A stretch of DNA of 64,000 bases from an uncultured Bacteroidales bacterium (lineage in GTDB: Bacteria > Bacteroidota > Bacteroidia > Bacteroidales > UBA932), in assembly GCA_934717185.1 (NCBI GenBank), contig CAKUYQ010000016.1, forward strand, positions 3,162-67,161, in the 5' to 3' direction. The position numbers were made by a program, and so were the translations under genes. Below the pieces are notes generated by a model. The model saw only the letters and a program-made list of their open reading frames with translations, did not search any database and was not told the DNA's origin. Each line of letters opens with the position of its first letter. The first letter of the stretch is position 1. Below, one piece after another: positions 8,875 through 37,073 of the stretch.

Positions 8875-10251
8875 TTAGAACGAGAATCTAAGTCCGGCAT
8901 CGAATGTAACGGAAAAGTCCTTGTCTGAATAGTAGTTCTGTACTGTAAAGTTATTGAACTTGGTAAGCTCTTCGTTATCTGACAGCATAAAACTTACTCC
9001 GGGCTGTACAAAAATTCCAACATTCCTGCTCAGCTTCCCAAGAAAGCCTGCCTGCAGATTTAAAGAGGATTCAAACTGGCCTATACCAAAACTCTCATGG
9101 CCTATACTTGCGCTTATGCACTTGTTTATATTGCAGCCTGCTCCAAGATAAAGCCCTGCAGCCTTGCCATTTACAAAATACCAGTTAAGATTTACAGGCA
9201 CCCCTATGTAATGTAGCTTCTGGCTTATTTTCTCGTTATTTTTCTTTATATCAGACCGCAGATATGAGTAAGAAAGCCCTGTTTCAAAATAAAGATTCTT
9301 GGATACCTTTACAGCTACGGTAACCCCAAACTTAAGTGGAAGTTTATGATTGTAGCTACCACCCCTCAGGTCTATCTTATTCTCCCTAATACCCGTTACA
9401 TGGCTCAAGTTCTTTTCTGTGGTGGAGAAAGCACCTTTATCAAATTTCCCCAAATCTTTATTTTCGACCCTGTTAACCCCTTGGTTAATATCATACAGAA
9501 AATTAGGGGAAGATTCCATGTCCTGGAGGCTTTTAATATCATCATCATAACCACTCTCTAAAAACATCCCTCCACCGGCCGCATTTCCGGCATTAAGGGC
9601 AATTGAAACCCCTTTTTCTTCCCGATAAATCTTTCCCTTTCTGCCTTTCCTGCCATTTTCCGCCACTGCTTTATCCCACTCCTTTTGATCTGAGAATGTT
9701 AGATTAACAACATTGTTAACCACATCCGCATTTGATTTCTCCTCCTCTGCACTGTTCTCTATTACAGTACTTTCCATTGCTATACTCTCAGTTTTGGTAT
9801 TTTCTGTTAAAGCAACCTCTGTAATGGCATTTTCTGCAGATGCACTCTTTTCAGTTACAGCATTTTCTAATGCGGGGTTGTCAGTTACCTCAACTTCCTT
9901 ATACCCATTATCTGCTACATTTTTAGTTCTCTGCCCAGGCAGACTGTTTTGGGCAATATAGTATGGAGCAGAGGTTTTTTTTACAACTGCAATCATATCT
10001 GTACTACTGTTTGCTTTAAAATTGCCAACAAACTCCCTGTTTATGTATATAGTAGGTAAAAGAAGCAGAACGATTGCAGCCGCAGCGCAGTAACTTATCA
10101 ACTTTATCACTTTTGCACGCTTTCTCCTCATTATGCTGTTCATAACAGCGCCAAAACCATCCGCAGGCAACTCAGTCTCTATACTGTTTACCTTGTTCTT
10201 TATCTCTTCAATCCACTCTTCATGAAGATTATTTTTATCTAACGGTTTCAT
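8875..10251 (-). CDS. membrane-anchored anti-sigma factor with C-terminal outer-membrane beta-barrel (porin/PorT-like) domain
   Basis: The ORF track starts at 10299. The MKPLDK start at 10251 avoids overlap with the upstream sigma gene. Domains: short cytoplasmic N-terminus, one TM helix (VIKLISYCAAAAIVLLLLPTIYI), an acidic low-complexity TEN-rich linker, and a C-terminal beta-strand-rich domain ending in an aromatic residue (LRFSF). Confidence 0.55.
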   Translation of the reverse strand: MKPLDKNNLHEEWIEEIKNKVNSIETELPADGFGAVMNSIMRRKRAKVIKLISYCAAAAIVLLLLPTIYINREFVGNFKANSSTDMIAVVKKTSAPYYIAQNSLPGQRTKNVADNGYKEVEVTDNPALENAVTEKSASAENAITEVALTENTKTESIAMESTVIENSAEEEKSNADVVNNVVNLTFSDQKEWDKAVAENGRKGRKGKIYREEKGVSIALNAGNAAGGGMFLESGYDDDIKSLQDMESSPNFLYDINQGVNRVENKDLGKFDKGAFSTTEKNLSHVTGIRENKIDLRGGSYNHKLPLKFGVTVAVKVSKNLYFETGLSYSYLRSDIKKNNEKISQKLHYIGVPVNLNWYFVNGKAAGLYLGAGCNINKCISASIGHESFGIGQFESSLNLQAGFLGKLSRNVGIFVQPGVSFMLSDNEELTKFNNFTVQNYYSDKDFSVTFDAGLRFSF

Positions 10252-10255
10252 CCTG

Positions 10256-10813
10256 CTATCTGTTTTGCATTTGTAAATAATCGTTAACCATTTTTGCAAG
10301 TGAACTCTTTGCTCTTGCCAATTGGGAAGATGAACTTCTCTCGTTTATTCCCAACTTTTGTGCTATTTCCTTATGAGACAAATTCTCAAATACATAGAGG
10401 TTGAACACTGTTCTATATCCAACCGGCAGCCTGCCAATAAACTTTAAAAGCACATCATTCGGAACAGTAGACAATGACTCTGCATTAGGAGGATCCTCCT
10501 CAACATAATATTTGGCTTCGTTGAGGTCTGTCATAGCCAACTTCCGCTCCCTAAGATACTGGATAGATACATTTGCCGTGAGCTTGCACATCCAGGCCTT
10601 GAGAGAACCTTTCCCTCTCCATCTGAATTTGTCAAACGATGAAAAAATCTTTATAAAACTATCATGAAGAATATCCTCTGCAAGCTCCCTCTCCCCAAGG
10701 TAACGTAGGGCAACGACAAACAGCACCGGAGCATAACTCCGGTATAACTCCGCCATAGCCGTTTTATTGCCGTTTTTGCACTCTTCAACGATAGTTTCCT
10801 CTTGCATTGTCAA
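10256..10813 (-). CDS. ECF-type RNA polymerase sigma-70 factor
   Basis: 185 aa with region 2 (LRYLGERELAEDILHDSFIKIF) and region 4 HTH (LSHKEIAQKLGINERSSSSQLARAK). Confidence 0.85.
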   Translation of the reverse strand: MTMQEETIVEECKNGNKTAMAELYRSYAPVLFVVALRYLGERELAEDILHDSFIKIFSSFDKFRWRGKGSLKAWMCKLTANVSIQYLRERKLAMTDLNEAKYYVEEDPPNAESLSTVPNDVLLKFIGRLPVGYRTVFNLYVFENLSHKEIAQKLGINERSSSSQLARAKSSLAKMVNDYLQMQNR

Positions 10814-21685: not shown

Positions 21686-22162
21686 TTACTCATCTTCACC
21701 CCAACCGGTTCTTCTGAACCCCGAAATGGTGTAGCTATGGCCGGTAACGGATGAATAATAGGTCATTTCTATAGAGTCTTCCGTACCTCCTGAAGGTGTT
21801 GTCGCACCATTTACAACAACTTTTCCCTCTATGTCGCTTGTACCTCCGCGCAATTGGTTCTCAACCTTCTTGCCGCTAAAAGTACAGTTAGCTACATCAC
21901 ATTCTATTTTACATCTGGTGCCATACTTTAAGTTTATCCATAACCACATTACATTTTTTTCCTTATTAGCGGTGTCGTATGTGAATATTACGGCATGCTC
22001 TGACTCCTTGGTGGTATTATCTGTTATGCTAATCCTCCACTCACCGCAAAGCGGATAAATAGGGGAGAACTCCTGTTTGTACTTTTTATTGTATGTTTCG
22101 CACGAAGCAGTGCAGATAACAAGAAGTGTGAATGATATTAAAATATTCGTAATCTTATTCAT
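21686..22162 (-). CDS. small surface lipoprotein encoded downstream of SusD (function unknown)
   Basis: 158 aa with lipoprotein signal LLVICTASC and a beta-rich sequence. It is the last gene of the susC1-susD1 operon. It may belong to the small lipid-binding-like lipoprotein family found in such operons, but this is unverified. Confidence 0.5.
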   Translation of the reverse strand: MNKITNILISFTLLVICTASCETYNKKYKQEFSPIYPLCGEWRISITDNTTKESEHAVIFTYDTANKEKNVMWLWINLKYGTRCKIECDVANCTFSGKKVENQLRGGTSDIEGKVVVNGATTPSGGTEDSIEMTYYSSVTGHSYTISGFRRTGWGEDE

Positions 22163-22182
22163 AGCTTTTATTTTTGTTATTG

Positions 22183-23643
22183 TTATTTATGCCACCATTG
22201 CTTTTGTGTAAGGCTCAGTGGTTCCGGAGCATTTGGATTATTTTCGGTGGAAATTTTAGGGTAAATCATTCTTTTTGGATATTCGTCGGGATTAAGAGCA
22301 GAATCAATAACCGGTGCTAACTCTCCAACCGTATAAGCATCGTCTGAGGCAAGTTTGCTACCCAAGGCCGGTATGCCTGTCCTGTTTATGTCAAAGAAAC
22401 TGTCCCATGCCTGAGATCTGGCGGAGGCAACCCACTTTTGTGTAAGAATGCTTTTAAGCATTGTCTCTACAGATGATGTATTTAAAGCGTACGGACCCCC
22501 ATCCTTAATGAATGTCTGAGCATTGTATCCCCATCTTTCAAAAGCGGCTGTGACAGCACTGTTATAGGCGGCTTTTGCCTCATTAGCCCTTCCCAATCTG
22601 GCATACGCTTCTGCCTTGAGGAAACAGGTTTCTGCGTACGATATGAAGTAGACCGGGTCTTGTGGTGCCAACTTTGCTCTGCACACAGCTATAAAAATGA
22701 AAAAGTTTAAATTTGGACTCACTCCCTGATCTAATCCGTAGTATCCTCCAATTTTGTTTCGTTCGTAAAATGCCTCAATTCTGGGATCGTCGTGTTTGTT
22801 CAGGAATTTTACCAGAGTCTTGGATGCGGCAAGATTTTGATCTGTGTTAAGTTTTCTCCTGTCGTATTCGTAGAGCGGGTTGGAATTGTTCTCCTTGTTT
22901 GTAAAGAGATCTATCTTGCAATCTGATTTAAGAAAATTATTCTCTGCAAGCAGTGCCTCTATGGTTGCTTTGTTGTTGTTGAAATCCAACATAAGAAGTT
23001 TTAACTTAAGAGAATTGCCAAATTGAACCCATTTATTCATATCTCCACCGTTTATTATATCCTCCTTGCCCATAAGCACTTTAGATTTTGCTGCACTCTT
23101 TGCTTTTCCAAGTGCTGTATTCAGCCTCTCTATAAGTGCTCTGTTTACAGCCTTGCCGTTATCGTATTTTGGATAAAGCTGCTTATCGCCCATTAGTGCC
23201 TCACTGTATGGGATATTCTCATACCAGTTTGCAAGGATGTGGTATATAAAACAGGTCATTATTTCAGATACCATGTAATAGTTGTCTGCGCCCTCTTCTA
23301 TAGCTTTTTGCGCTATTATTTTTAAATCAGGCAGTGAATGGGTGTACGGGATGCTCCAAAATCTGGGGTAGCTTGTATTGGATATTGTATAGTTTACAGT
23401 TGTATTATATTGGTTTGCACCAACATTCTGTGTGTAATGCTGGCACCACATACTGCCAACGAGCTCCATCTCACCGCCAAGAATCCCTGCAAATGAGAGC
23501 TCTGCAGATGGCAACAACATACTGATTGGAACATCGCCCGGATAGTTTGGATCTTTGTTTATATCCATGGTCTTTTCGCATGAAGACAGTACAGACATTA
23601 CTGCCGTCAAGCATATTGTTGTATAAATGATGATATTTCTCAT
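22183..23643 (-). CDS. SusD/RagB family nutrient-binding outer membrane lipoprotein
   Basis: 486 aa with lipobox VLSSC and TPR-like helical content. It lies immediately downstream of a SusC-type gene. Confidence 0.85.
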   Translation of the reverse strand: MRNIIIYTTICLTAVMSVLSSCEKTMDINKDPNYPGDVPISMLLPSAELSFAGILGGEMELVGSMWCQHYTQNVGANQYNTTVNYTISNTSYPRFWSIPYTHSLPDLKIIAQKAIEEGADNYYMVSEIMTCFIYHILANWYENIPYSEALMGDKQLYPKYDNGKAVNRALIERLNTALGKAKSAAKSKVLMGKEDIINGGDMNKWVQFGNSLKLKLLMLDFNNNKATIEALLAENNFLKSDCKIDLFTNKENNSNPLYEYDRRKLNTDQNLAASKTLVKFLNKHDDPRIEAFYERNKIGGYYGLDQGVSPNLNFFIFIAVCRAKLAPQDPVYFISYAETCFLKAEAYARLGRANEAKAAYNSAVTAAFERWGYNAQTFIKDGGPYALNTSSVETMLKSILTQKWVASARSQAWDSFFDINRTGIPALGSKLASDDAYTVGELAPVIDSALNPDEYPKRMIYPKISTENNPNAPEPLSLTQKQWWHK

Positions 23644-23653
23644 AGCCGACTAT

Positions 23654-26600
23654 TTAAAATGTGATTTTAATGCTTCCCCCGAATGTCCTGTAGGTAGGAG
23701 CTGCTGCAAACTCGCCAAATTCAGAAAAGAGGTCATTACCGTAATTTGAAGCTTCGGGATCTACGTAGTTATTCTCTTTTGGTGTCCACATAAATAGGTT
23801 ACGTCCAATTGCACTTAATCTTATACCCTTTATGAATCTCGTCTTGTCCAACAGACTTGCAGGGAGATCATAAGAGAGAACCAATTCCCTTAATTTGAGA
23901 TAGTCTTTCTTAAGAACCCACCTTTTGAACAATGTATAGTTGGTGGCATTGTTGTAATATCCGTAGGCAGTAGACCATCTTATAGGGATGCTGTTTTCTA
24001 TATATTTTCCATTAACGTAACGGACTGAGTTAGGAACAACAAACGGTTGTCTGTTGTTGTAGACAGTAGGGGTTGCATTCCCGCAAAAATAGAGTAATTG
24101 AGCTGTGTAACAGTAGAATTTGCCACCGTTGCGCCAATCGAATAGTGCAGACAGTGATAATCCTTTCCAGGATATTTTAGTGTTGAATCCCATGTTGAAA
24201 CGTGGAGATGAAGAACCAACCTCCTCTTTTTTTGTAGGGTCTATTTGCGGAACTCCCATGGCATTCACAACAGTTCTTCCCTCGGGGTCTTTAAGAACAG
24301 CAGGTACCTTGAATACCCCAAATTCCTTTCCAACCGCAGCCACATATTGCACTTGATAGGCAGATCTTAAAACATACTCTTTTGTATTGTCCCACAGCTT
24401 AAGAACTTTAGACCGGTTTTTTGTAAAAGTGATGCCAATGTCCCAACTCCAGTCTCCCCGTTTGATAGGGGTAAAACCGGCCGTTACCTCTATTCCCCTG
24501 TTCCTTATTTTGCCAACATTTCTGGCTCTTGTAGTATAACCGCTTTCATTAGCAACTGCTGCAGCTATGATCTGGTCTTTGGTTGTTTTATTGTACAGAG
24601 CACAGTCCAACCTTATCCTGTTGTCAAAAAGGTTTACCATTAAGCCAATCTCAGCTTCTGTGGTAATCTCCGGCTTAAGTTTATTATTTGGGATAGTGTT
24701 ACCCTCTGTAAGTCCCGGTATCCCGCTTATAGGTAGATCCACACTGCCAAACCCTATGCCGAATCTTGCAGGAACAAATGATGCGGCGGTTTTATACAGA
24801 GGTGCATCATTACCTGTTTTTCCGTAAGCCAATCTCAATTTGAGAAATGATATGTTGTAATCTTTAAGACTATTTATTGCATCTGTTAATATGACCGAAC
24901 CATTGATTCCCCAATAGAAAAAAGAGTTGCTTTTAATCGGGAGCGTTGATGACCAGTCATTTCTGCAGACGGCAGTAATGTAAGCCCAATTGTTGTAGCT
25001 TAAATCCAATTGAGCGAACAAACCTTGCAATCTCCTGCATGTGTGGTATGACGTTGTCAGCGGTCTTTCTGTTCCGTTTTCAAGACTAAACCACCCTGGC
25101 AGATTCAAACCATACAAATAGGAGTCTATATATCTGCTTCTTCTCTCATTATAGTTGTAACCTATTGTCCCTCCAATATCTATTTTGTCTGCTATGCTGT
25201 AATTTGCAGTTGCCATAAATGTAAGATCAAACTGTTGCTGCCTGTCAAATACCTCCTCGTACGAGCCTGCCCGTGTTGCTTTTCTGATGTATGCAGACCA
25301 CGAATTGGGCGAGAATGTGATTTTTTCATTTCGTCTGAATATTCTTGAATTTGTTATGTCTGCGCCCAATCGTCCTGTTAACTTTAACCAATTGAGAACT
25401 TTGTATGTACACTCCGCCTTTCCAAATACTTTGTCGTCTGTATAGTTGTTTCTATTGTTGGCAAGTACCCAATATGGATTCTCTGCGTATGCAGTGTAGT
25501 AATTGTCTGTATTATTGTACAGGTCTTTGTAGTTTTTGTGCTTCCTAAATGAGATGTCGGTAGCAAACTGGAGAAGTTCCTGAAATGTTGATGCTCCGTC
25601 TCTTCCCTGTCCGGCAGATGGCTGGCTCATGTTTTTTTTCACATAATTTAGGCCTACATTTATATTGAATCGTTTATGTGTTGCATTTCCTCGTAGAGCA
25701 AAGGCATTTCTGTTGTAGGTATCTGCATTGCTTGGCATGACTCCGGATGCATGTGTGTTTCCGTAGGATATGAGTAATCCAAGACTTTCACCTCCGGCCT
25801 TTATAGAGATGTTATTGTCTGTCTCAAACCCTCTTTCGTAAAAATTGCGAATATTGTCCTTTACAAACTTAAACGATTTAAGCCTTACTTTAAAGTCTTT
25901 TGGCATAGCTTCTCCGTAGCCGGCCCATGCTCCGTATGTGTGCAATCTGCCATCTAACTTTGGTCCCCACGAGCCATTCTCCTTAGCTTCCCAGTGCGGC
26001 CACCCCTGGCCGAAAATATCCTGCACTTGAGGAACTCTTAGTACGTCGGATCCCATGAAAGAGCCGTCATAGTCAACTTGGATTTTTCCTGTTTTAGCTC
26101 TTTTTGTAGTTACCATTATTACACCGTTTGCAGCTCGCGAGCCGTAGAGCGCAGTTGCGGAGGCTCCTTTAAGAATTGTTAGCGTTTCAACATCATCGGG
26201 ATTTATGTCATTGGCTCCATTGCCAAAGTCTACAGATGATGAGGTTGATGCAGAGCCGTAAAAATTGTTGGATACAGGTATACCGTCTACGACATATAGC
26301 GGATTGTTGTTGGAGAATGATGATATGCCCCTCACGAGTACCTTCTGTGATGTACCGGTTCCTCCTTGAGATGAGATCTGTACACCTGCAATCTTCCCTT
26401 GAATGCCTCCTGCAATCGACGATGACCTTGCTTGTGTAAGATCGTCGGATTTAACGGTGGTGGTGGCATAACCAACAGACTTTTGTGATCTTGTCATGCC
26501 CATTGCCGTAATGACAACCTCATCGAGCAGGTTGGAAGACCTGAGTCCCACGTTTATTCTGCTTCTGCCATTTACAGCCTCTTCAATAGTTTCATAACCT

Positions 26601-26830
26601 AAGTATGAGAAAACAAGCACAGCATTGCTGCTGCATGCAATACTATAGTTGCCGTCTGAATCTGAAAATGTGCCTATAGTCTTCTCTTTTACCTTAATGT
26701 AAGCGCCAACAAGCGGTTCACCGCTTTCAATGTCCAAAACTTTGCCTGTTACAGTTATATCTTGAGCTCTTAACACGCTGCAACAAATAATAAAGAACAG
26801 GCCGGACAATAGTAGTTCTACCTTCTTCAT
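23654..26830 (-). CDS. SusC/RagA family TonB-linked outer membrane transporter
   Basis: 1058 aa. Signal peptide, a carboxypeptidase-regulatory-like N-domain (ITVTGKVLDIESGEPLVGAYIKV), a TonB box/plug (DEVVITAMG) and a large barrel ending in KITF. Confidence 0.92.
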   Translation of the reverse strand: MKKVELLLSGLFFIICCSVLRAQDITVTGKVLDIESGEPLVGAYIKVKEKTIGTFSDSDGNYSIACSSNAVLVFSYLGYETIEEAVNGRSRINVGLRSSNLLDEVVITAMGMTRSQKSVGYATTTVKSDDLTQARSSSIAGGIQGKIAGVQISSQGGTGTSQKVLVRGISSFSNNNPLYVVDGIPVSNNFYGSASTSSSVDFGNGANDINPDDVETLTILKGASATALYGSRAANGVIMVTTKRAKTGKIQVDYDGSFMGSDVLRVPQVQDIFGQGWPHWEAKENGSWGPKLDGRLHTYGAWAGYGEAMPKDFKVRLKSFKFVKDNIRNFYERGFETDNNISIKAGGESLGLLISYGNTHASGVMPSNADTYNRNAFALRGNATHKRFNINVGLNYVKKNMSQPSAGQGRDGASTFQELLQFATDISFRKHKNYKDLYNNTDNYYTAYAENPYWVLANNRNNYTDDKVFGKAECTYKVLNWLKLTGRLGADITNSRIFRRNEKITFSPNSWSAYIRKATRAGSYEEVFDRQQQFDLTFMATANYSIADKIDIGGTIGYNYNERRSRYIDSYLYGLNLPGWFSLENGTERPLTTSYHTCRRLQGLFAQLDLSYNNWAYITAVCRNDWSSTLPIKSNSFFYWGINGSVILTDAINSLKDYNISFLKLRLAYGKTGNDAPLYKTAASFVPARFGIGFGSVDLPISGIPGLTEGNTIPNNKLKPEITTEAEIGLMVNLFDNRIRLDCALYNKTTKDQIIAAAVANESGYTTRARNVGKIRNRGIEVTAGFTPIKRGDWSWDIGITFTKNRSKVLKLWDNTKEYVLRSAYQVQYVAAVGKEFGVFKVPAVLKDPEGRTVVNAMGVPQIDPTKKEEVGSSSPRFNMGFNTKISWKGLSLSALFDWRNGGKFYCYTAQLLYFCGNATPTVYNNRQPFVVPNSVRYVNGKYIENSIPIRWSTAYGYYNNATNYTLFKRWVLKKDYLKLRELVLSYDLPASLLDKTRFIKGIRLSAIGRNLFMWTPKENNYVDPEASNYGNDLFSEFGEFAAAPTYRTFGGSIKITF

Positions 26831-27015
26831 AGAGTTGAGTATTAGTTAATAACTTTAAATTTGAGCTATTAAGTTTGGTTAACTCGAAAAAAAGGAAACT
26901 TTGGAACAACTTGGAATTATCAGTCCTTTAGCTGATTTTTACAGGTTAATATTTGTATGGGCCAGATGGTAATTGATGGGATTAACTGCAAGTGAACGTG
27001 TAACCATCTCAGTGA

Positions 27016-27046
27016 CAAATGTAAACAAATTTTATTATAAAACAAA
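27016..27046 (-). promoter_or_regulatory. candidate Bacteroides sigma-A promoter for susC1
   Basis: The minus strand reads TTTG-N19-TACATTTG. This matches the TTTG / TAnnTTTG consensus with canonical spacing. It lies about 185 nt upstream of the susC1 ATG. Confidence 0.55.
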
Positions 27047-27067
27047 CTTCCCGACAAAAAGTTATTC
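27040..27067 (-). repeat. 28-bp repeat B, copy 1 (identical to 37046..37073)
   Basis: The reverse complement reads gaataactttttgtcgggaagtttgttt, identical to the sequence at 37046..37073. It contains the TTGTCGGGAAG motif and supplies the -33 TTTG of the susC1 promoter. Confidence 0.9.
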
Positions 27068-27120
27068 ACCTTTATGTTATTTACTGTAGTTCTTGCAGCA
27101 AGTGGGTGTCCCATCACCTC

Positions 27121-27171
27121 GCAACACCATAACCGCAATCCTTTATGGTGCACATTAGAGAAAAACTATCC
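27121..27171 (-). repeat. 51-bp repeat A, copy 1 (perfect inverted copy of 32208..32258)
   Basis: The reverse complement is ggatagtttttctctaatgtgcaccataaaggattgcggttatggtgttgc, identical over 51/51 nt to 32208..32258. It contains the internal palindrome CACCATAA-N10-TTATGGTG. Confidence 0.95.
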
Positions 27172-27281
27172 TTTATCTTGCAATCGATTGAGCAGCTTGT
27201 TTATCTTACGGATTAAATGGGCTATACAGGTTGTTGTTCAAAAAAAGTTTGATAAAAATTATAATATCCAAGAATATTATC

Positions 27282-27289
27282 TACATTTG
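27282..27289 (+). promoter_or_regulatory. candidate -7 box for korAB
   Basis: TACATTTG matches TAnnTTTG and lies 57 nt before the korA ATG. No well-spaced -33 TTTG is present. Confidence 0.35.
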
Positions 27290-27345
27290 TAATATTTTAA
27301 TAAAATAACTACTAACGTTAAGAAATCTTAGAGAATTATTCTTTT

Positions 27346-29175
27346 ATGGAAAACAAAATTATCGACGCACAAGATATTGTGATCCGTTTTACCGGAGACT
27401 CCGGAGACGGAATGCAATTGACTGGAACTCTGTTTGCAGATGCATCTGCACTGTACGGGAATGAGATATCTACCTTCCCGGATTATCCAGCTGAGATTCG
27501 TGCTCCTCATGGTACTGTAGCCGGTGTATCGGGCTTCCAGGTACATGTTGGAAATGGAGAAGTTAGAACTCCTGGTGACTATGCAGATGTGCTTGTTGCC
27601 ATGAATCCCGCCGCACTTAAAGCTAACGCAAAATGGTGTAAGAAAGGTGGCACTATCATTTTGGATGAAGATTCTTTTGATGAGAAAGGTTTGGAGAAAG
27701 CAGGATTCAAGACAATGGATCCTATTGCAGAGATGAATCTTAGTGACTACCATATTGTATGGTCACCAATTACCTCTCTTACAAAGGAGAGCTTAAAGGA
27801 TAGCGGGTTAGATCTTAAGGCTATCGTTAGGAGTAAAAACATGTTTACTCTTGGTATGTGCTACTTTATGTTCAGCAGACCGCTGCATTTTACAGAGGCA
27901 TACCTCGAAAAGAAATTTGCAAAGAAACCTAATCTTATAGAGCCAAACAAGAAGGTTCTCAGAGACGGTTACAATTATGCACATAATATTCACGCTATAC
28001 CTAATACTTATCGTATTGCTCCTGCAAAAGTTGCCCCCGGCAAATACAGAAGCATTAACGGTAATCAGGCTACTGCATGGGGACTTTTGGCTGCATCCGA
28101 GAAATCGGGCAGACCTCTTTATTGTGGTTCATACCCTATTACCCCTGCAACGGTTATTCTTGAAGAGCTTGCAATTCACAAAGAACTTGGAGCAAAGACT
28201 GTTCAGTGCGAAGATGAGATTGCCGGTATATGTACAGCCATTGGAGCTGCATACGCAGGTAACTTTGCTGTAACAACAACATCGGGTCCCGGTCTTTCTC
28301 TAAAATCAGAGGCTATGGGCCTTGCAATGATAACAGAGTTGCCTCTTGTTATTGTAGATGTTCAGAGAAGCGGCCCTTCTACAGGTATCCCTACAAAAAC
28401 AGAGCAGACAGACCTTAATCAGGCACTATACGGAAGAAACGGAGAGTGTCCCATTATGGTAATGGCTGCAAGAACACCATCTGATTGCTTTAGGGCGGCT
28501 TTCTATGCAGGTAAATATGCTATGGAGCACATGATGCCTGTCATTCTTCTTTCGGAGGGTTTTATAGGTAACGGTTCAGAGCCTTGGAAGATCCCTTCTA
28601 TGAGTGATTTCCCTGAGATCCATCCACCTATTATAGATAAGTGTGAGGGTAAGTTCAAACCATTTGAAAGAGATCCTGAGACATTGGTGCGTAAATGGGC
28701 TTTACCCGGCACTCCCGGATTGGAGCACAGAGTAGGCGGTCTTGAGAAGGATGAGAACGGTGCGGTTTCATCTGATCCTATAGTTCACGACAGAATGGTT
28801 AACGCCAGAGCAGAGAAGATTGCGAGAGTTGCCAACTGCATTCCACCTCTTGAGGTTGTTGGAAAACAGGAGGGCGATGTTCTTATCGTTGGCTGGGGCG
28901 GTACATACGGACACTTGTACACAGCAACTAAGGAACTTTTAGACGAGGGGGCAAGTGTAGGTTTTGCACATTTCGATTACATTAATCCTCTTCCTAAGAA
29001 TACTGTTGAGGTATTCTCAAAATTCAAGAAGATTATTGTATGCGAGCTTAACTCAGGCCAGTTCGTTAACTACCTAAGGGCAAAAGCTCCTCAGTTCAAA
29101 TATGAGCAGGTTAATAAAGTACAGGGCCAGCCTTTCATAGTTAAGGAGATAATTGAGGCCGTTAAAGCATTATAA
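27346..29175 (+). CDS. korA: 2-oxoglutarate/2-oxoacid:ferredoxin oxidoreductase, alpha (fused gamma-alpha) subunit
   Basis: 609 aa. The N-terminal gamma-like domain (RFTGDSGDGMQLTG) is followed by the alpha domain (GSYPITPAT, TTSGPGLSL). Confidence 0.85.
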   Translation: MENKIIDAQDIVIRFTGDSGDGMQLTGTLFADASALYGNEISTFPDYPAEIRAPHGTVAGVSGFQVHVGNGEVRTPGDYADVLVAMNPAALKANAKWCKKGGTIILDEDSFDEKGLEKAGFKTMDPIAEMNLSDYHIVWSPITSLTKESLKDSGLDLKAIVRSKNMFTLGMCYFMFSRPLHFTEAYLEKKFAKKPNLIEPNKKVLRDGYNYAHNIHAIPNTYRIAPAKVAPGKYRSINGNQATAWGLLAASEKSGRPLYCGSYPITPATVILEELAIHKELGAKTVQCEDEIAGICTAIGAAYAGNFAVTTTSGPGLSLKSEAMGLAMITELPLVIVDVQRSGPSTGIPTKTEQTDLNQALYGRNGECPIMVMAARTPSDCFRAAFYAGKYAMEHMMPVILLSEGFIGNGSEPWKIPSMSDFPEIHPPIIDKCEGKFKPFERDPETLVRKWALPGTPGLEHRVGGLEKDENGAVSSDPIVHDRMVNARAEKIARVANCIPPLEVVGKQEGDVLIVGWGGTYGHLYTATKELLDEGASVGFAHFDYINPLPKNTVEVFSKFKKIIVCELNSGQFVNYLRAKAPQFKYEQVNKVQGQPFIVKEIIEAVKAL

Positions 29176-29193
29176 TCAATAAAAATCACTGCA

Positions 29194-30210
29194 ATGAAAT
29201 ATACATCACAAGATTTTAAAAGCGATCAGGAAGTAAAATGGTGTCCCGGATGCGGTGACCATGCCGTACATGCATCTGTTTTGAGGGCTATGCCTGAGGT
29301 TTGTGAGGCATTGGGCTATACAAAAGAGAGATTTGTGTTTGTTTCCGGTATTGGTTGTTCATCGAGGTTCCCATACTATATGAATACATACGGATTCCAT
29401 GGTATTCATGGTAGAGCTACAGCACTCTCTACAGGTATGAAGGTTGCAAATCCAACCTTGTCTATATGGCAGATGACAGGTGACGGCGATGCCTTGGCTA
29501 TTGGCGGTAACCATTTCATACATGCAATAAGAAGAAACATAGATATCAACATTATATTGTTCAACAACAGGATTTACGGTCTTACAAAAGGACAGTATTC
29601 ACCTACATCAAAACTTGGTTTGGTTACAAAGACGTCTCCTTACGGAACAGTTGAGTATCCTTTCAATCCCGGGGCGTTGGTACTTGGTGCAAGAGGTACT
29701 TTCTTTGCCCGCAGTTTGGATTCTGAGCTTAAGTTGAATCAGGAGATAATGGTTGCTGCTGCCAAACACGATGGTACATCTGTTATGGAGATGCTCGTAA
29801 ACTGCGTTATCTTTAACGATGGAACACACCTTGAGTTCTCTGAAAAATCTGTAAGGGCAGACAGAACTATTGTCTTGAGACATGGCGAGCCAATGATCTT
29901 TGGCGCCAACAGAGACAAAGGACTTATCCTTGAGAACATGAAACTTAAGGTTGTGAAGATTGGTGAGAACGGCATAACAGAGAAGGATATCCTTGTTCAT
30001 GACGCGCATACAGACAATATTGGTCTTCACAGCATGCTTGTTGATATGAAGTATCCTGATTACCCTGTTGCTCTTGGCGTTATAAGGGATGTTAAGGATA
30101 TGACATACGATGACAGGGTAAGAGATCAGGTTGCCGAGGTTAAGGAGAAGGCAAAAATCAAATGTGTTGATGACCTTCTTAATTCCGGTGCTACCTGGAC
30201 TGTAGAATAG
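29194..30210 (+). CDS. korB: 2-oxoglutarate/2-oxoacid:ferredoxin oxidoreductase, beta (TPP-binding) subunit
   Basis: 338 aa with WCPGCGDH and the GDGDALAIGGNHFIHAIRRN TPP-binding motif. Confidence 0.85.
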   Translation: MKYTSQDFKSDQEVKWCPGCGDHAVHASVLRAMPEVCEALGYTKERFVFVSGIGCSSRFPYYMNTYGFHGIHGRATALSTGMKVANPTLSIWQMTGDGDALAIGGNHFIHAIRRNIDINIILFNNRIYGLTKGQYSPTSKLGLVTKTSPYGTVEYPFNPGALVLGARGTFFARSLDSELKLNQEIMVAAAKHDGTSVMEMLVNCVIFNDGTHLEFSEKSVRADRTIVLRHGEPMIFGANRDKGLILENMKLKVVKIGENGITEKDILVHDAHTDNIGLHSMLVDMKYPDYPVALGVIRDVKDMTYDDRVRDQVAEVKEKAKIKCVDDLLNSGATWTVE

Positions 30211-30295
30211 TTGTTGGGAAGAAAAATTTAATGATAAGAGAGATTAGTAGAGATAAACTCTAATTTTATAAACACTAAATAACATTTATATCAGT

Positions 30296-31636
30296 ATGAA
30301 AACATCTGAGATAATGGCTAACCTTAAAAGGAAATATGGCCATGAGCCTGAGTACCTTCAGGCAGTTCAGGAGGTTTTGGAGTCTATAGAAGAGACCTAT
30401 AACCAGCATCCTGAGTTTGAGAAAGCTAAAATTGTAGAGAGAATTGTTGAACCAGACAGAATCTTTACTTTCCGTGTTACATGGATTGACGATAAAGGTG
30501 AGATCCAGACTAACTTGGGTTACAGAGTTCAGTTTAACGCAGCTATCGGCCCATACAAAGGCGGTCTTCGTTTCCACAAAGCTGTTACACCTTCTATGCT
30601 TAAATTCTTGGGCTTTGAGCAGACTTTCAAAAACGCTCTTACTACTCTTCCTATGGGTGGTGGTAAAGGTGGTTCGGATTTCGATCCTGTTGGAAAATCT
30701 AACGCCGAGATTATGCGTTTCTGCCAGGCTTTCATGTTAGAGTTGTGGCACAACATTGGTCCTGATCAGGATGTTCCTGCAGGTGATGTTGGAGTTGGCG
30801 GAAGAGAGATTGGTTTCTTGTTTGGTATGTACACCAAACTTGCTCGCCAGTACAATACAGGTGTTCTTACCGGTAAAGGTCTTAACTGGGGTGGTTCTAA
30901 GATCCGTCCTGAGGCTACAGGTTTCGGCGCTCTATACTTCACTCAGCACCTTCTTCACAAAGCTGGTAAGGATGTTAAAGATAAAACTATCGCTATTTCA
31001 GGTTTTGGTAACGTTGCATGGGGTGCTGCTACAAAAGCAACTCAGTTAGGTGCTAAGGTTATCGCTATCTCAGGTCCTGATGGCGTTTGCCATATTCCTG
31101 CAGGTTTGACTCCTGATATGATAGACTATATGCTGGAGCTTAGAGCTTCTAACAAGAACATCGTTTCTCCTATGGCAGAGAAGTTCCAGGGCGTTACATT
31201 CACTCCTGGTAAGAAGGCTTGGAGCATTAAGTGTGACATAGCTCTTCCTTGCGCATTCCAGAACGAGCTTAACGGTGACGATGCTAAAGAGCTTCTTGCA
31301 AACGGTACATGGTGCTGCTGCGAGGTTTCTAACATGGGTTGTACTCCTGAGGCTATCAAAGCATTCCAGGATGCAAGAATCTTGTTTGCTCCGGGTAAGG
31401 CTGTAAACGCAGGTGGTGTTGCTACATCGGGTCTTGAGATGACTCAGAACGCTATGCATATCAGCTGGTCTGCAGAAGAGGTTGACAAGAAACTTCACGA
31501 GATTATGCAGAATATCCACGAGGCTTGCGTTAAATTTGGTACTGAGCCAGACGGTTATATCAACTATGTTAAAGGTGCAAACATTGCAGGCTTTATGAAG
31601 GTTGCTAATGCTATGCTTGAGCAGGGTATTATCTAA
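30296..31636 (+). CDS. gdhA: NAD(P)-specific glutamate dehydrogenase
   Basis: 446 aa with the catalytic-Lys motif LPMGGGKGGSDFDP and dinucleotide fold ISGFGNVAWGA. Confidence 0.93.
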   Translation: MKTSEIMANLKRKYGHEPEYLQAVQEVLESIEETYNQHPEFEKAKIVERIVEPDRIFTFRVTWIDDKGEIQTNLGYRVQFNAAIGPYKGGLRFHKAVTPSMLKFLGFEQTFKNALTTLPMGGGKGGSDFDPVGKSNAEIMRFCQAFMLELWHNIGPDQDVPAGDVGVGGREIGFLFGMYTKLARQYNTGVLTGKGLNWGGSKIRPEATGFGALYFTQHLLHKAGKDVKDKTIAISGFGNVAWGAATKATQLGAKVIAISGPDGVCHIPAGLTPDMIDYMLELRASNKNIVSPMAEKFQGVTFTPGKKAWSIKCDIALPCAFQNELNGDDAKELLANGTWCCCEVSNMGCTPEAIKAFQDARILFAPGKAVNAGGVATSGLEMTQNAMHISWSAEEVDKKLHEIMQNIHEACVKFGTEPDGYINYVKGANIAGFMKVANAMLEQGII

Positions 31637-31663
31637 TCGGTGAATAGTCGATTATTTTATATG

Positions 31664-31694
31664 GGGGCGGTCTTTAATGACTGCCTCTTTTTTT
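31664..31694 (+). terminator. intrinsic terminator after gdhA
   Basis: 9-bp stem ggggcggtc / gactgcctc (two G-U pairs), a 6-nt loop, then a T7 run. Confidence 0.7.
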
Positions 31695-32207
31695 GTATTT
31701 ATTTGTAGTTTTTTCTGCAAAATCTAAACAAAAAGTTAGATGAGTAGATTAAATATTGTGAATTTATTATAAAAACATACCGAATTTTATCTTTTTTTTA
31801 CATAAGAATGCTTGTTTTGTAATTTTTTTATTATATTTGTAAGCCCGCTTGTTCCGAGGTTTCAATTATAAATCTGTTAGGATTACTGTTTGATAGGCAG
31901 TTGGTGGGTGAAACCAAGGAATAGGGAGGAAAGAACACAGTTATTATTAGTCAAATCTTAACATAATGTTAACTTTATTTTACTAAATGAACACTTTCGG
32001 CACGTTTAGTAAATATTAGATGATAAACAAATTTGTGAAGAATTGATTATCTATTTTAACTGTTTTAAAAACTTTTTTTACCATTATTGGTTGTGAATAC
32101 ATTTAATTATTACGCGTAAAAGCCCCATAATGGTTGTTGACAAATTTTTTTATTGATTATTATTTTACAATTTTGTAGACGAGAAAGAGAATAAAAAACA
32201 TTAATGC

Positions 32208-32258
32208 GGATAGTTTTTCTCTAATGTGCACCATAAAGGATTGCGGTTATGGTGTTGC
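32208..32258 (+). repeat. 51-bp repeat A, copy 2
   Basis: Identical to the reverse complement of 27121..27171. It ends 68 nt before the susC2 ATG. Confidence 0.95.
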
Positions 32259-32325
32259 AGAGGGGAGCAGACTATATAATTGAATCCATTTTTATTAACT
32301 TATTATTAACTAATTAAAGTAACTG

Positions 32326-35300
32326 ATGAAAAACATGCGACTATTGCTTACAGGGCTGTTGTGTTTTATAGCTGTGGGATTTGCATCTGCACAGAATATA
32401 AACGTTACAGGTACTGTTAAGGATGCGACCAACGGCGAGCCGGTTGGTTTCGCGTATGTGCAGATTAAAGGCACTACAACGGGAACTTCCACAAATGACG
32501 ATGGAACATTCTCAATTAAGGCCCCAAAAGACGGAGTCCTTATCTTCTCTTTTGTTGGCTACAAGACCACAGAAGTTGAGGTTAAAGGAAGAACTCACAT
32601 AGACGTTCTAATGGAGAGTGATGCCCTTGAGCTTGACGAGACCCTTGTTGTAGCCTATGGTACACAGAAAAAATCATCATTCGTAGGATCTGCTACCCAA
32701 TTGAAGGGTGAGTCTTTAAAGAAGATGCAGACATCAAACGTTTCCAAAGCACTTGAGGGTGCTGTAGCAGGTCTGCAGACTTCAAGTTCTTCCGGAACTC
32801 CCGGTTCGGGCGCAAGCATACAGATCCGTGGATTTGGCTCTGTAAGTGCTTCGAGAGATCCTCTTATTGTAGTGGACGGTACCCCTTATGAGGGCGGTTT
32901 GAACTCTATTCCGCCTCAGGATATTGAGTCTATTACAGTTCTTAAGGATGCTGCTGCAAACTCTATGTACGGTGCCCGTGGTTCTAATGGTGTTATCATG
33001 ATCACAACCAAGAGAGGTGTAGAGGGTAAAGTTACCATCAACTTTGATGCTAAGGTTGGTGTTAACTCAAGAGCTGTGCCTGCTTACGATGTAATCAGCA
33101 ATCCGGGCCAGTACTATGAGATGGCTTGGGAGGCAATGAGAAACTCTGTTTATTATGCAGGTACAATAGCAGATCTTGCAGAGGCAGGCAGATACGCTTC
33201 AGCTAATCTCATAAATGGTGACGGTGGCTTAGGCCCATATAACATCTATAAGAATGTTGCAGATGATGCCATTATAGACCCAACAACCGGCAAACTCAAT
33301 CCAAATGCCACAACCCGTAAATGGAATGACGACTGGAACAAAGATGTATTCCGTAACGGTTTACGTCAGGAGTACAGTTTGTCTGTATCAGGTGGTTCAG
33401 ACAAGACTCAAGGGTATATGTCTGTTTCTTACCTCGATGATGAGGGATATGTTCCAAAATCTGGTTTCAAGCGTATAGCTGTTAGAACCAAGTTGGATCA
33501 GACTGTTACAAGCTTCATTAAGGCTGGTATCAACCTTGCATACTCAAACACAGATCAGAATAGATATAATGACAATGAGAGTAACAACTACTCAAATATG
33601 TTCATGTTCACTCAGAATATAGCTCCTATCTATCCTATCTACCTTTATGATGAAAACGGTGTACGTCAGTACAATGCAAAGGGTGAGACCCTATACGATT
33701 GGGGTGAGACAGGCCGTGCATACGCACCTACCAGCAACCCTTACGGACAGGCTCTTACATCAAAGGCAAAGGATATTTCAGATAACGTGTCAACAAGAGG
33801 TTATGTGAATGTTAACATATTAAAGGATTTAGTATTCACTGCAAATGTTGCGTACGATGTATTCAACACAAAGAGAGATTACTATACAACTCCAAACGGT
33901 GGTGATGCAAAGAATGTTGGCGGACGTGGTGAACAGTATGGTGAGAGATATACAGCTCTTAATGCCAACCAACTTTTGACATGGTCTCCTTCATTTGGTG
34001 AGCACAATCTTAATGTACTTGTCGGTCACGAGACAAAATCAGACGACAGCTATGTCCTTTACGGTCACATGACAAACTTTGTAAACCCAACTGTAAGTGA
34101 CTTTGCTAATGCAACAGTTTATCAGGATCTGTCATCTTATAGAAGCGATTACTTCCTCGAGGGTGTATTCGGTAGAGTAGAGTATAACTATGCAAACAAA
34201 TACTACTTTACAGCATCATACCGTACAGATGGTTCATCTCGTTTTGCAAAAGATAAACGTTGGGGTAGCTTCTGGGCTGTTGGTGCATCTTGGAATGCAA
34301 AGGCCGAGAACTTCTTAAAGGATGTAGATTGGGTTGAACTTCTAAAGGTTAAGGCAAGTTACGGTACTCAAGGTAACGATAATATTGGTTACACCAAAGT
34401 ATATGAGAATCTATACAGAGTAGACAGGGTAGACGGTAGTGCTTCACTAACGCAGACTTTCCGTGCAGCTCCGGATGTAACTTGGGAGAAATCAAACAAC
34501 TTTAACGTTGGTATTGAGACAAGATTGTTCAACAGATTGTCTGTTAACGTTGAGTACTTCGTTAAAGAGACAAAGGATATGATCTATGCACAGCCTCTTG
34601 CTCCATCACAGGGTACTCCTGCTTCACAGCTTGTGAATGATATGGATATGAAGAATAGCGGTATTGAGTTTGAGATTAGCGCAGATCTGTTTAGAACAAA
34701 AGATTTCTCATGGAATATCTCATTGAACGGAACTCATTACAAGAACAAGATTACAAAACTTCCTTCGGATTATCCTGCAGAGGGTAAGCAGTATGGCGCA
34801 TTCTGGCGTGAAAAAGGCGGTTCACTGTTCAACTACTATATGTATGAGTGGGCCGGCGTAGACCAGACTAACGGTCTTCCTCAGTACTACAAATATGATG
34901 ATAACGGAGAGCGCTCTATTGTTAATACTACATCTGAGGCAACTTACCGCAAAACAGGCAAATCACCTATTCCTGATCTTTATGGTGGTATTGCTACAAC
35001 ATTTACATTCAAAGGCTTTGATTTGAGTGCAAACTTTGCATACCAGATTGGCGGCTATACAATAGACTATGCATATCAGGGTTTGATGTCTGCAGGTAGT
35101 TCAGGTACCAACTGGCATAAGGATATCCTAAACAGATGGACATCTGACAACACCAACACAGGTACTCCTCGTGTTCAGATGAACTATCAGGAGGCAAATG
35201 CTACTTCAACAAGATGGCTTACAAAATCATCTTACTTTAGCATAAGGAACCTTACTTTGGGCTACACAATTCCTCGCAGCATTACAAGCAAGATAGGCTT

Positions 35301-35466
35301 GTCTAATTTGAGAGTATATGTAACAGCAGATAATCTGTTCTATACATCTGCCAGAAAGGGTCTGGATGTACGTAGATCGTTCGAAGGTGGTGCAGGTTCA
35401 GATGATGTTAATTTCACCTATTCAGCTCTTCGTACAATTTCCGGAGGATTGTCTATAACACTATAA
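32326..35466 (+). CDS. SusC/RagA family TonB-linked outer membrane transporter
   Basis: 1046 aa. Signal peptide, carboxypeptidase-regulatory-like domain (INVTGTVKDATNGEPVGFAYVQI), plug (DETLVVAYGTQKK) and a barrel ending in LSITL. Confidence 0.92.
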   Translation: MKNMRLLLTGLLCFIAVGFASAQNINVTGTVKDATNGEPVGFAYVQIKGTTTGTSTNDDGTFSIKAPKDGVLIFSFVGYKTTEVEVKGRTHIDVLMESDALELDETLVVAYGTQKKSSFVGSATQLKGESLKKMQTSNVSKALEGAVAGLQTSSSSGTPGSGASIQIRGFGSVSASRDPLIVVDGTPYEGGLNSIPPQDIESITVLKDAAANSMYGARGSNGVIMITTKRGVEGKVTINFDAKVGVNSRAVPAYDVISNPGQYYEMAWEAMRNSVYYAGTIADLAEAGRYASANLINGDGGLGPYNIYKNVADDAIIDPTTGKLNPNATTRKWNDDWNKDVFRNGLRQEYSLSVSGGSDKTQGYMSVSYLDDEGYVPKSGFKRIAVRTKLDQTVTSFIKAGINLAYSNTDQNRYNDNESNNYSNMFMFTQNIAPIYPIYLYDENGVRQYNAKGETLYDWGETGRAYAPTSNPYGQALTSKAKDISDNVSTRGYVNVNILKDLVFTANVAYDVFNTKRDYYTTPNGGDAKNVGGRGEQYGERYTALNANQLLTWSPSFGEHNLNVLVGHETKSDDSYVLYGHMTNFVNPTVSDFANATVYQDLSSYRSDYFLEGVFGRVEYNYANKYYFTASYRTDGSSRFAKDKRWGSFWAVGASWNAKAENFLKDVDWVELLKVKASYGTQGNDNIGYTKVYENLYRVDRVDGSASLTQTFRAAPDVTWEKSNNFNVGIETRLFNRLSVNVEYFVKETKDMIYAQPLAPSQGTPASQLVNDMDMKNSGIEFEISADLFRTKDFSWNISLNGTHYKNKITKLPSDYPAEGKQYGAFWREKGGSLFNYYMYEWAGVDQTNGLPQYYKYDDNGERSIVNTTSEATYRKTGKSPIPDLYGGIATTFTFKGFDLSANFAYQIGGYTIDYAYQGLMSAGSSGTNWHKDILNRWTSDNTNTGTPRVQMNYQEANATSTRWLTKSSYFSIRNLTLGYTIPRSITSKIGLSNLRVYVTADNLFYTSARKGLDVRRSFEGGAGSDDVNFTYSALRTISGGLSITL

Positions 35467-35477
35467 TTTTAAATGAG

Positions 35478-37001
35478 ATGATTATGAAAAAATATATATC
35501 AATATTAGCTTCAACAGTACTTTTGTTTACAGCCTGCGAGAAGTCTTTTGATGTAGAGAACACCAATCGCATGACCGGAACAGATGCTATTGCAAAAGTT
35601 GAGGAAGATCCTGAATTTCTTACCTCGTACGTAAATGGCTGTTATGCATGGTCAATTGAGTATAACAGCGGTGGTGGAAGCCACGGTGACTTTGGATTCT
35701 TGGGGGTAGTCTATAACACAGATATGATGGGTTTGGATATAGCCATCAAAGGATCATGGAACTGGGGTACATACGATATTAACCATGATTATGGTGCATA
35801 TAACTACAGACGCCCTTATCAGTTCTGGAACTTTTTCTACACCCAGATTAAAAAGGCTAACGAGATTATAGATATGTTTGGAGAAGAAGATCCAACAGAT
35901 TCAAATCTAAAAGGATGGCTTGGACAGGCATACGCCCTTAGAGCATTTGGATATACTTATCTTATACAGCTTTTCCAGGATCCTGTTGAGGGAACTACCC
36001 CTAATGCAAAATTTAGGGATTCTGCCCCTGCAGTTCCAATTATCTACTCTGTAAGAGATGGTAAATCAAATGAGGAGGCAGCACAGGTTGGTGGACGTAA
36101 CACAATGGCAGATCTTAAGACAGAGATTGAGCGTAATATAGAGAAAGCTCTTCCTCTTCTTCAAGGCTATAAGAGGGCTTCCAAAAATGAGATCAACTAT
36201 GAGGTTGCTCAGGGTATAGCAGCACGCTACTACCTTCTTACCCAGCAATGGAGCAAAGCTATTTCAGCTGCTCAGGCTGCTCAGAATGGCTTTGATATAA
36301 TGGATCAGACCCGTCTTCTTTCGGGCTTTATGGAGATAGAGGACGCAGAGGTTATGTGGGGATTCAACCATACAACCGAGACTATGACATCATACGCTTC
36401 ATTCTTCTCACACCTAAGTAACGACAGCCCGGGTTATGGTGGAGTAGGCCAGTCTATTCACTGTATAGACCGCAGTTTGTATGATCAGATTCCTGCTACA
36501 GACTATAGAAAGGATCTGTTTAATGATGAGAACGGTGATCCTAATGCAGAAATGACAGGTGCAAAGATGGCATACGCTGCAAGAAAATTCGGCTATGCTG
36601 CCTCATGGTTGCAGGATTACATCTATATGCGTAATGCAGAGATGGTTCTTATAGAGGCTGAGGCTCATGCACGTCTTGCAGACGGTCAGGCAGCTTCAAC
36701 TCTTGCAAAACTTATGGCAAAAAGAGATCCTGCATGGTCTGCATCTAATGTTACTGTAGACGATGTTCTTCTCCAGAGAAGAATTGAGTTGTGGGGCGAG
36801 GGCTTTGAGTACTTCGACCTAAGACGTAACGGTATAACAGTTAACAGAAAATATGAGGGCACTAACCATGCAGCAGCTGCTCAGTATGAATTCCCTGCTC
36901 ATAGCGCAAGCTGGAATTTCCAGATTCCTAGACAGGAGATGCAGAATAATATGTACATCACAGAGGATGAACAGAATGATTGGGTAACAGGCGCTATGTA
37001 A
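35478..37001 (+). CDS. SusD/RagB family nutrient-binding outer membrane lipoprotein
   Basis: 507 aa with lipobox LLFTAC. The C-terminal RRIELWGEGFEYFDLRR motif is characteristic of the RagB/SusD family. The start may be M3 (35484). Confidence 0.88.
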   Translation: MIMKKYISILASTVLLFTACEKSFDVENTNRMTGTDAIAKVEEDPEFLTSYVNGCYAWSIEYNSGGGSHGDFGFLGVVYNTDMMGLDIAIKGSWNWGTYDINHDYGAYNYRRPYQFWNFFYTQIKKANEIIDMFGEEDPTDSNLKGWLGQAYALRAFGYTYLIQLFQDPVEGTTPNAKFRDSAPAVPIIYSVRDGKSNEEAAQVGGRNTMADLKTEIERNIEKALPLLQGYKRASKNEINYEVAQGIAARYYLLTQQWSKAISAAQAAQNGFDIMDQTRLLSGFMEIEDAEVMWGFNHTTETMTSYASFFSHLSNDSPGYGGVGQSIHCIDRSLYDQIPATDYRKDLFNDENGDPNAEMTGAKMAYAARKFGYAASWLQDYIYMRNAEMVLIEAEAHARLADGQAASTLAKLMAKRDPAWSASNVTVDDVLLQRRIELWGEGFEYFDLRRNGITVNRKYEGTNHAAAAQYEFPAHSASWNFQIPRQEMQNNMYITEDEQNDWVTGAM

Positions 37002-37035: not shown

Positions 37036-37073
37036 CTTCCCGACAGAATAACTTTTTGTCGGGAAGTTTGTTT
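37036..37073 (+). terminator. intrinsic terminator after susD2, built from an inverted pair of the CTTCCCGACA motif
   Basis: Perfect 10-bp stem cttcccgaca / tgtcgggaag (37036..37045 and 37057..37066), an 11-nt loop, then tttgttt. Confidence 0.75.
37046..37073 (+). repeat. 28-bp repeat B, copy 2
   Basis: gaataactttttgtcgggaagtttgttt, identical to the reverse complement of 27040..27067. Confidence 0.9.

Follow-up and report, generated by a model that had tools for sequence, protein, structure and literature searches.

In the BT1032-BT1053 polysaccharide utilization locus of Bacteroides thetaiotaomicron, a shufflon that requires the local tyrosine recombinase BT1041, one expressed 5' end or promoter is re-linked to alternative susC bodies, the alternative genes being 5'-truncated; the crossover point was placed within a 7-bp stretch of the susC coding sequence, and a change of surface receptor is suspected (Porter et al., bioRxiv 10.1101/521070). 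The SusC/SusD shufflons of Bacteroides fragilis are attributed, in the articles that cite the original study, to a global invertase, Tsr0667, which is encoded far off and acts in trans (Nakayama-Imaohji 2009, as cited in PMC4747536 and PMC9881135). The invertase Mpi is also reported to act globally in trans (PMC4747536). Here we describe a locus from an uncultured Bacteroidales bacterium, on a 64,000-nucleotide stretch of contig CAKUYQ010000016.1 (positions 3,162 to 67,161; hereafter the window), in which the operon korA-korB-gdhA is flanked by two slots that are each occupied, across strains, by one of three SusC/SusD cassettes (C2, C3, and C4) placed head-to-head. Comparisons among strains suggest that the locus is probably a shufflon-like expression-site switch for alternative SusC/SusD transporter cassettes.

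As in the B. thetaiotaomicron locus, several SusC/SusD-type operons share 5' ends that are recombined. Here, however, no recombinase is encoded locally, each cassette carries a complete leader and start codon, the repeat consists of the 5' untranslated region (UTR) plus 12 codons, and it is a housekeeping operon that is flipped. The likeness to the Tsr0667 shufflons lies in shufflon-type inversion at susC/susD clusters, although in another, uncultured Bacteroidales lineage. The shared inverted 5' ends typical of shufflons are present as a 153-bp head common to C2, C3, and C4 (in the window, one side has only 51 bp of it), and alternative arrangements generated by inversion between the repeats are found among strains, including in unambiguous assemblies. 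In the pilE/pilS system of Neisseria, silent cassettes are copied non-reciprocally into one expression locus in a RecA-dependent manner. The locus described here resembles that system in having one putative expression site and alternative cassettes whose conserved ends are homogenised by gene conversion, but differs in that reciprocal inversion takes place between two complete operons. The locus appears to extend the known kind of SusC/SusD shufflon, with the distinguishing features of a housekeeping operon flipped together with the putative expression site, a repeat that includes the 5' UTR and start codon of complete operons, a common cassette tail, and no recombinase nearby.

The core of the locus in the window consists of the following features, with gene assignments supported by Pfam:

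27121..27171, minus strand: left copy of the head, on the korA side; a 51-bp stump left from the head of a C4-type cassette that has been deleted, at the place where other strains have a head of ~153 bp and a cassette
27125..27150, no strand assigned: left copy of the palindrome, 26 bp, CACCATAA-N10-TTATGGTG
27346..31636, plus strand: korA-korB-gdhA block between the heads; the whole apparently invertible segment is 27172-32207, and the block is found both ways round relative to its flanks in other strains
32208..32360, plus strand: full cassette head on the gdhA side, in which the 51-mer is followed by 67 nt of leader and by 35 nt from the start of susC2 (MKNMRLLLTGL)
32229..32254, no strand assigned: right copy of the palindrome, 26 bp; more conserved among strains than the rest of the head, and at the centre of a hairpin of 66 nt predicted for the leader
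32326..37001, plus strand: cassette C2, composed of susC2 (1046 aa) followed by susD2 (507 aa); it occupies the putative expression site

An earlier reading of this DNA (the original prediction) held that 27121-27171 is the exact reverse complement of 32208-32258, and this is borne out (51/51). Only these two copies occur in the window, even when up to 3 mismatches are tolerated, and as none of 100 dinucleotide-shuffled windows contained a match, the repeat is not due to chance. The 26-bp palindrome that had been noted is present in both copies. Both copies have the same orientation relative to the outward-facing susC genes and their identity breaks off sharply on each side, as predicted. The distance from the left 51-mer to the susC1 ATG (26830) is 290 nt, the figure originally given, whereas that from the right 51-mer to the susC2 ATG (32326) is 67 nt and not 68 nt. 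Across strains, the 51-mer is 94%-98% conserved, compared with 76%-90% for the surrounding intergenic DNA.

Related contigs were gathered from public assemblies by exact matches to GdhA, KorB, SusC, SusD, and neighbouring proteins. Numerous contigs from the same species were recovered, with korAB-gdhA DNA 94%-100% identical to that of the window, and they reveal that the inverted repeat between heads in other strains is not 51 bp but ~153 bp long. In L001, L003, L004, and L006, korAB-gdhA is bracketed by inverted repeats of 153-154 bp that are 96%-100% identical. This head (the 51-mer, the 67-nt leader, and the first 12 codons, MKNMRLLLTGLL) is common to all three cassettes, and the N-termini of SusC2, SusC3, and SusC4 are identical over the part that it encodes. 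Hence, the system is wider than the two operons originally considered and includes at least three cassettes, of the following content:

C2: susC2 (1046 aa), susD2
C3: susC3 (1003 aa), susD3, genes for a Calx-beta protein, a hypothetical protein and an S8 peptidase with a type IX secretion system tail, and PorV
C4: susC4 (1058 aa), susD4
37036..37073, plus strand: complete cassette-tail terminator after susD2, CTTCCCGACA-N11-TGTCGGGAAG followed by a T run

Beyond the head, the cassettes are dissimilar (pairwise identity 37%-44% for SusC and 29%-32% for SusD), with the exception of their tails, which share the same terminator hairpin and T run; in L103 and L104, an intact copy of this hairpin stands after susD4 or PorV. 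We considered whether C2 and C4 could be alleles of one cassette and rejected this, as their SusC proteins are only 44% identical. SusC2 and SusC4 nonetheless share ~70 N-terminal residues, a sign of deeper recombination. The C3 cassette occupies the slot on the susC1 side in some strains and that on the rpoC side in others, with only ~81% DNA identity in the distal genes; therefore, whole cassettes have been exchanged between slots.

The original prediction proposed that recombination between the repeat copies inverts korAB-gdhA, and the strain comparison supports this, since the block lies both ways round with respect to all three cassettes and to the constant backbone. The backbone comprises BamA-OmpH-OmpH followed by the lipid-binding-protein/susD1/susC1 operon on one side, and an AXE1-like esterase, a racemase, a thioredoxin-like protein, and rpoC on the other. 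With this backbone as the reference, the window type and L112 have their korA end toward the susC1 side (as likely does L121, a short contig with C4 joined to the korA end that stops before the backbone), and L001, L003, L004, L006, L094, L111, L114, and L115 have their gdhA end toward it. Each cassette has been found at either end. C2 is at the gdhA end in the window and L112, at the korA end in L001, L006, and L120, and reduced to a korA-end stump in L114 and L122. C3 is at the gdhA end in L001, at the korA end in L003, L094, and L111, and left as a korA-end remnant in L112. C4 is at the gdhA end in L003, L094, L111, L114, and L119, at the korA end in L121, and reduced to a korA-end stump in the window. 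The changes of orientation are scattered over at least 3 clades. L006 has the opposite orientation to the window, with only 12 single nucleotide polymorphisms (SNPs) in 4291 nt (0.28% apart). In the L114/L122 lineage, the whole susC1-susD1 operon is missing, and C2 is reduced to fragments.

The two ends of the block differ in their promoter-like elements. Scanning with the Bacteroides -7 motif, TAnnTTTG (PMC4747536), gave three outward-reading matches at the gdhA end and none at the korA end. The relevant features are:

31663..31688, plus strand: gdhA terminator hairpin, with compensatory changes between strains visible
31832..31839, plus strand: candidate promoter P1, a perfect -7 box TATATTTG, invariant in all strains
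32028, plus strand: outward -7 match CAAATTTG
32168..32175, plus strand: candidate promoter P3, CAATTTTG, 33 nt upstream of the head, invariant in all strains
27282..27289, plus strand: putative internal korA promoter, a perfect -7 box TACATTTG, which moves with the block

The region from gdhA to the head (571 nt) is conserved and carries the outward promoter-like elements, and the korA-side flank is variable or wholly missing across strains. P1 and P3, together with their surroundings, are invariant across strains whose spacer is otherwise 76%-90% identical, and P3 aligns with the region upstream of a C3-like susC in another species (L126). The same spacer contains a conserved block (31955-31990) with the palindrome TTAACAT-A-ATGTTAA, less symmetric in the L094/L114 clade, which may be an operator.

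The gdhA end is thus the putative expression site, and the finding of outward -7 boxes at this end only fits the idea, raised in the original prediction, of a promoter-exchange shufflon. Recombination between the two inverted heads would flip the 5-kb korAB-gdhA block and, since outward promoter-like boxes lie at the gdhA end only, inversion would choose the cassette to be transcribed, with korAB-gdhA riding along under its own promoter. In the state captured in the window, C2 is at the putative expression site and the korA-side C4 has been reduced by deletion to the 51-bp stump. A flip in this strain would silence C2 and direct transcription through a broken terminator toward susC1. We infer both switching within a strain and a functional effect of the promoter asymmetry.

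The region outside the left 51-mer indicates how the window came to have the shorter repeat. It contains the following:

27068..27120, minus strand: relic of the 3' part of susD4, 53 nt, 90.6% identical to L003 15436-15488, which lies inside susD4
27040..27067, minus strand: right half of the cassette-tail terminator hairpin, its left arm deleted
21686..27023, minus strand: susC1-susD1-lipid-binding-protein operon with a -7 box TACATTTG at 27016-27023, outside the cassette family
22183-26830, minus strand: susD1-susC1 (Pfam)

The half terminator and its complete counterpart form a second, nested inverted repeat (28/28; 27040-27067 and 37046-37073). Moving outward from the 51-mer, the order of susD4 relic, half terminator, and susC1 promoter is that found after an intact C4 or C3 in L103 and L104, where susC1 lies downstream of a complete cassette and its terminator. 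Given the susD4 relic and half terminator beside the 51-mer, this strain must once have had C4 at this position and lost it by two deletions. The left 51-mer represents the final 51 bp of the head of the deleted cassette, its length and abrupt outer edge being deletion end-points. The original prediction had instead taken that edge as the limit of a site and the left copy as an element in front of susC1, neither of which holds given the relic and half terminator that lie next to the left copy. As a candidate regulator of susC1, the left copy was therefore rejected, being a C4 stump with susC1 as a separate operon downstream. SusC1 is 30%-32% identical to SusC2, SusC3, and SusC4 and differs from them at the N-terminus; susC1 forms an operon of its own rather than part of a cassette. 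The private susC1 promoter outside the segment that had been postulated is matched by its perfect -7 box.

As to the recombining enzyme, the earlier statement that the window lacks a recombinase gene was upheld by Pfam scans, or precomputed Pfam hits on identical contigs, over the remaining substantial open reading frames of the 64 kb, which yielded none. Strain-specific SNPs are common to both heads of a genome, including at positions between the palindrome and korAB-gdhA (L111 and L114), and therefore indicate gene conversion and show that homologous recombination acts on these repeats. For example, conversion has replaced at least 115 nt of the C2 head of L001 with the C3 version, and L006 retains the C2-lineage version. 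In L006, all C2-lineage SNPs remain with the cassette, including one in the palindrome spacer, which accompanies C2 in both orientations (L112 and L006). This travelling SNP would speak against a crossover at the dyad centre in that history, although heads are mostly homogenised within a genome and transfer between strains is possible, which limits crossover mapping by SNPs. Homologous recombination alone could yield the inversions, and RecA-type recombination on the 51-153-bp repeats may be responsible, at a little under even odds.

Nearly as likely is a trans-acting invertase that would use the 26-bp palindrome, with a Mpi-family serine invertase as the lead candidate. This dyad is the most conserved part of the head, it is missing from the homologous leader in L126, and in L094 uninterrupted head-to-head identity across it is only ~35 nt. 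The hix and gix sites of the Hin/Gin-type serine invertases are 26 bp in size, as is the dyad. Moreover, two sister species (GdhA 90% identical) have a gene for a Mpi-family master DNA invertase (NF009949, 334 bits) adjoining gdhA:

L127 9962-10567 and L128 97-705: Mpi-family gene, 201-202 aa, tail-to-tail with gdhA

The order in L127 is a C3-like cassette, mpi, and then gdhA on the opposite strand, and in L128 mpi followed by gdhA-korB-korA on the opposite strand. At the corresponding position, the window has the 571-nt promoter-bearing spacer and the head, and a search of the window for a mpi gene or remnant found none. Mpi targets are short promoter segments, unlike the 5-kb segment of three genes here, and the window, head included, contains no ARACGTWCGT, the repeat motif of Mpi. 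The Tsr0667 repeat consensus, reportedly AGTYYYN4GDACT in the 2009 study, has no match in the head. Its sole match in the window, AGTTCTTCCGGAACT at 32785-32799 within susC2, corresponds to a chance-level frequency; the site is present in all C2 copies and has no partner in C3, C4, or susC1.

Several observations weigh against a switch as proposed above, and in part they favour a different explanation, namely that the locus carries a scar, in which paralogous 5' regions are homogenised by gene conversion, with rare RecA crossovers that have inverted korAB-gdhA on a few occasions in the history of the species and an orientation that is fixed in each strain without any regulatory role. Contigs that are nearly clonal share one orientation even across samples, and both orientations within one sample or clone were not seen in these contig-level data. 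In the commonest strain type (L112 and 7 similar contigs), susC3-susD3-Calx-hyp is missing together with the korA-side head, and this type is locked with C2 beside gdhA; deletions are frequent in general. No recombinase is encoded within 27-32 kb on either side or in any cassette. The SNPs common to both heads require non-reciprocal gene conversion, and the spacer SNP that accompanies C2 both ways speaks against a crossover at the dyad centre in that history. The proposed promoters consist only of motif matches, and a weak -7-like box inside the head (TATAATTG) could drive every cassette in either orientation. Decayed cassettes were found on the korA side in 3 of 9 lineages and on the gdhA side in none of 8, an excess that points toward the switch but is not significant (one-sided Fisher p ~0.12). 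On the other hand, a passive scar accounts poorly for orientations that differ between strains 0.28% apart and change repeatedly in several clades, for the sharply bounded head shared by three otherwise dissimilar cassettes, for promoter-like boxes that are strictly one-sided, and for the intactness of all gdhA-side cassettes. We thus regard the scar as rather unlikely. It is scarcely credible that the inversions are assembly artefacts, i.e., path choices made by an assembler that places the segment between inverted repeats arbitrarily. A perfect 153-bp inverted repeat does exceed the k-mer of most assemblers, and several MEGAHIT contigs end at the head (L005, L118, L124, and L125). Nonetheless, opposite orientations occur where the path is unambiguous, as in the window and L089 (51-bp repeat, k=141), in L112 (single head), and in L006, L094, L111, and L114, where the two heads differ (at 6 sites in L006, so that its assembly is unambiguous), and the same arrangements recur in independent samples and assemblers.

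A further explanation, an alternative already named in the original prediction, gives the palindrome a mainly regulatory role, either as a shared operator bound by a dimeric regulator or as an RNA hairpin in the 5' leader; every cassette would be under its control, and inversion would be incidental. The palindrome would lie within the transcribed leader with P1 or P3 as the promoter, or at approximately -47 of TATAATTG with that box instead. Around the palindrome, the head folds as an imperfect hairpin of 66 nt, in which several G-U pairs form on the sense strand only (-20 kcal/mol consensus), and the 51-mer is conserved above the neighbouring spacer DNA. However, compensatory base changes were seen in 0 of 25 pairs, the fold z-score is only -2, and an Rfam scan of 26500-32700 returned nothing relevant at E<=1. 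The palindrome is also missing from the homologous leader of the C3-like susC in L126 and upstream of susC in L063, L065, and L128, and the orientation polymorphism would be left unexplained. A regulatory role of the palindrome is possible but unsupported, and we consider it unlikely that this is its main function. We give still less weight to a model of mobile cassettes, which arises from the composition of the tail. Among 9-12-mers, those most over-represented in the window are without exception variants of (G)CTTCCCGACAA(A), and there are 10 copies of the 10-mer TTCCCGACAA where ~0.12 would be expected. The copies, on both strands and mostly intragenic, are as follows:

1116, 12174, 13487, 27049, 37038/37057, 38501/38585, 46064, 53702, 53973, 55014, 55848, 63833: (G)CTTCCCGACAA(A)

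At each cassette tail, the terminator consists of an inverted pair of (G)CTTCCCGACAA, and no enrichment of the oligomer was found among 80 loci from related species. It resembles a DNA uptake sequence or a Chi-like element. In the mobile-cassette model, the head dyad and the tail hairpin, the latter built from an oligomer that would be species-specific and ~80-fold over-represented genome-wide, would delimit SusC/SusD cassettes exchanged between slots and strains in an integron- or transformation-like manner, with an ancestral gdhA-adjacent Mpi-family invertase acting on the dyad. We consider this distinctly improbable.

No match to a 31-mer from the head was obtained when 185,579 species genomes (a collection that does not include this species) were searched for exact copies, and the closest gdhA relatives in that collection, 86% identical, are without the repeat. 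A first scan of Joint Genome Institute (JGI) metagenomes for the head found no match; a looser 25-mer recovered 4 contigs, all of the same species. None of the loci compared contained an additional head copy or third slot. In an unrelated metagenome-assembled genome (L051), gdhA alone is bracketed by a 51-nt inverted repeat (1-51 and 1595-1645; 46/51) that starts at the contig end. Related genera (L009-L015, L024, L028, and others) have a contiguous OmpH-korA-korB-gdhA arrangement without such repeats, and therefore the cassette system is lineage-specific, the window orientation is ancestral, and the susC1 operon and both cassette slots are insertions in this species. In more distant relatives (L063 and L065), a susC 42% identical to susC2 lies directly downstream of gdhA. 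The recurrence of susC beside gdhA hints that GdhA may be functionally tied to a SusC/SusD importer.

The rest of the window is made up of housekeeping genes (BamA/OmpH, rpoBC, ribosomal proteins, tuf, and dxs). A gene for an extracytoplasmic function (ECF) sigma factor lies on the minus strand at 10256-10813 and overlaps the beginning of that for a 474-aa outer-membrane beta-barrel-domain protein, and this pair (8875-10813) lies 17 kb from the locus. As the cassette SusC proteins are without an N-terminal signalling domain, a link between the ECF pair and the cassettes is unlikely.

Gut Bacteroidota take up nutrients mainly through SusC/SusD pairs, which phage and the immune system also target, and switching between these pairs generates population heterogeneity. 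The locus takes the shufflon idea into an uncultured human-gut lineage, with an unusual layout in that the flipped piece is a central-metabolism operon encoding 2-oxoglutarate:ferredoxin oxidoreductase and glutamate dehydrogenase. The secreted S8 peptidase in C3 points to a possible link between glutamate metabolism and the uptake of peptides or nitrogen. Natural strains display the decay of such a switch, in the form of stumps, locked variants, and gene conversion, and the locus is well suited to distinguishing between RecA acting alone and a trans-acting invertase as the driver of the inversions.

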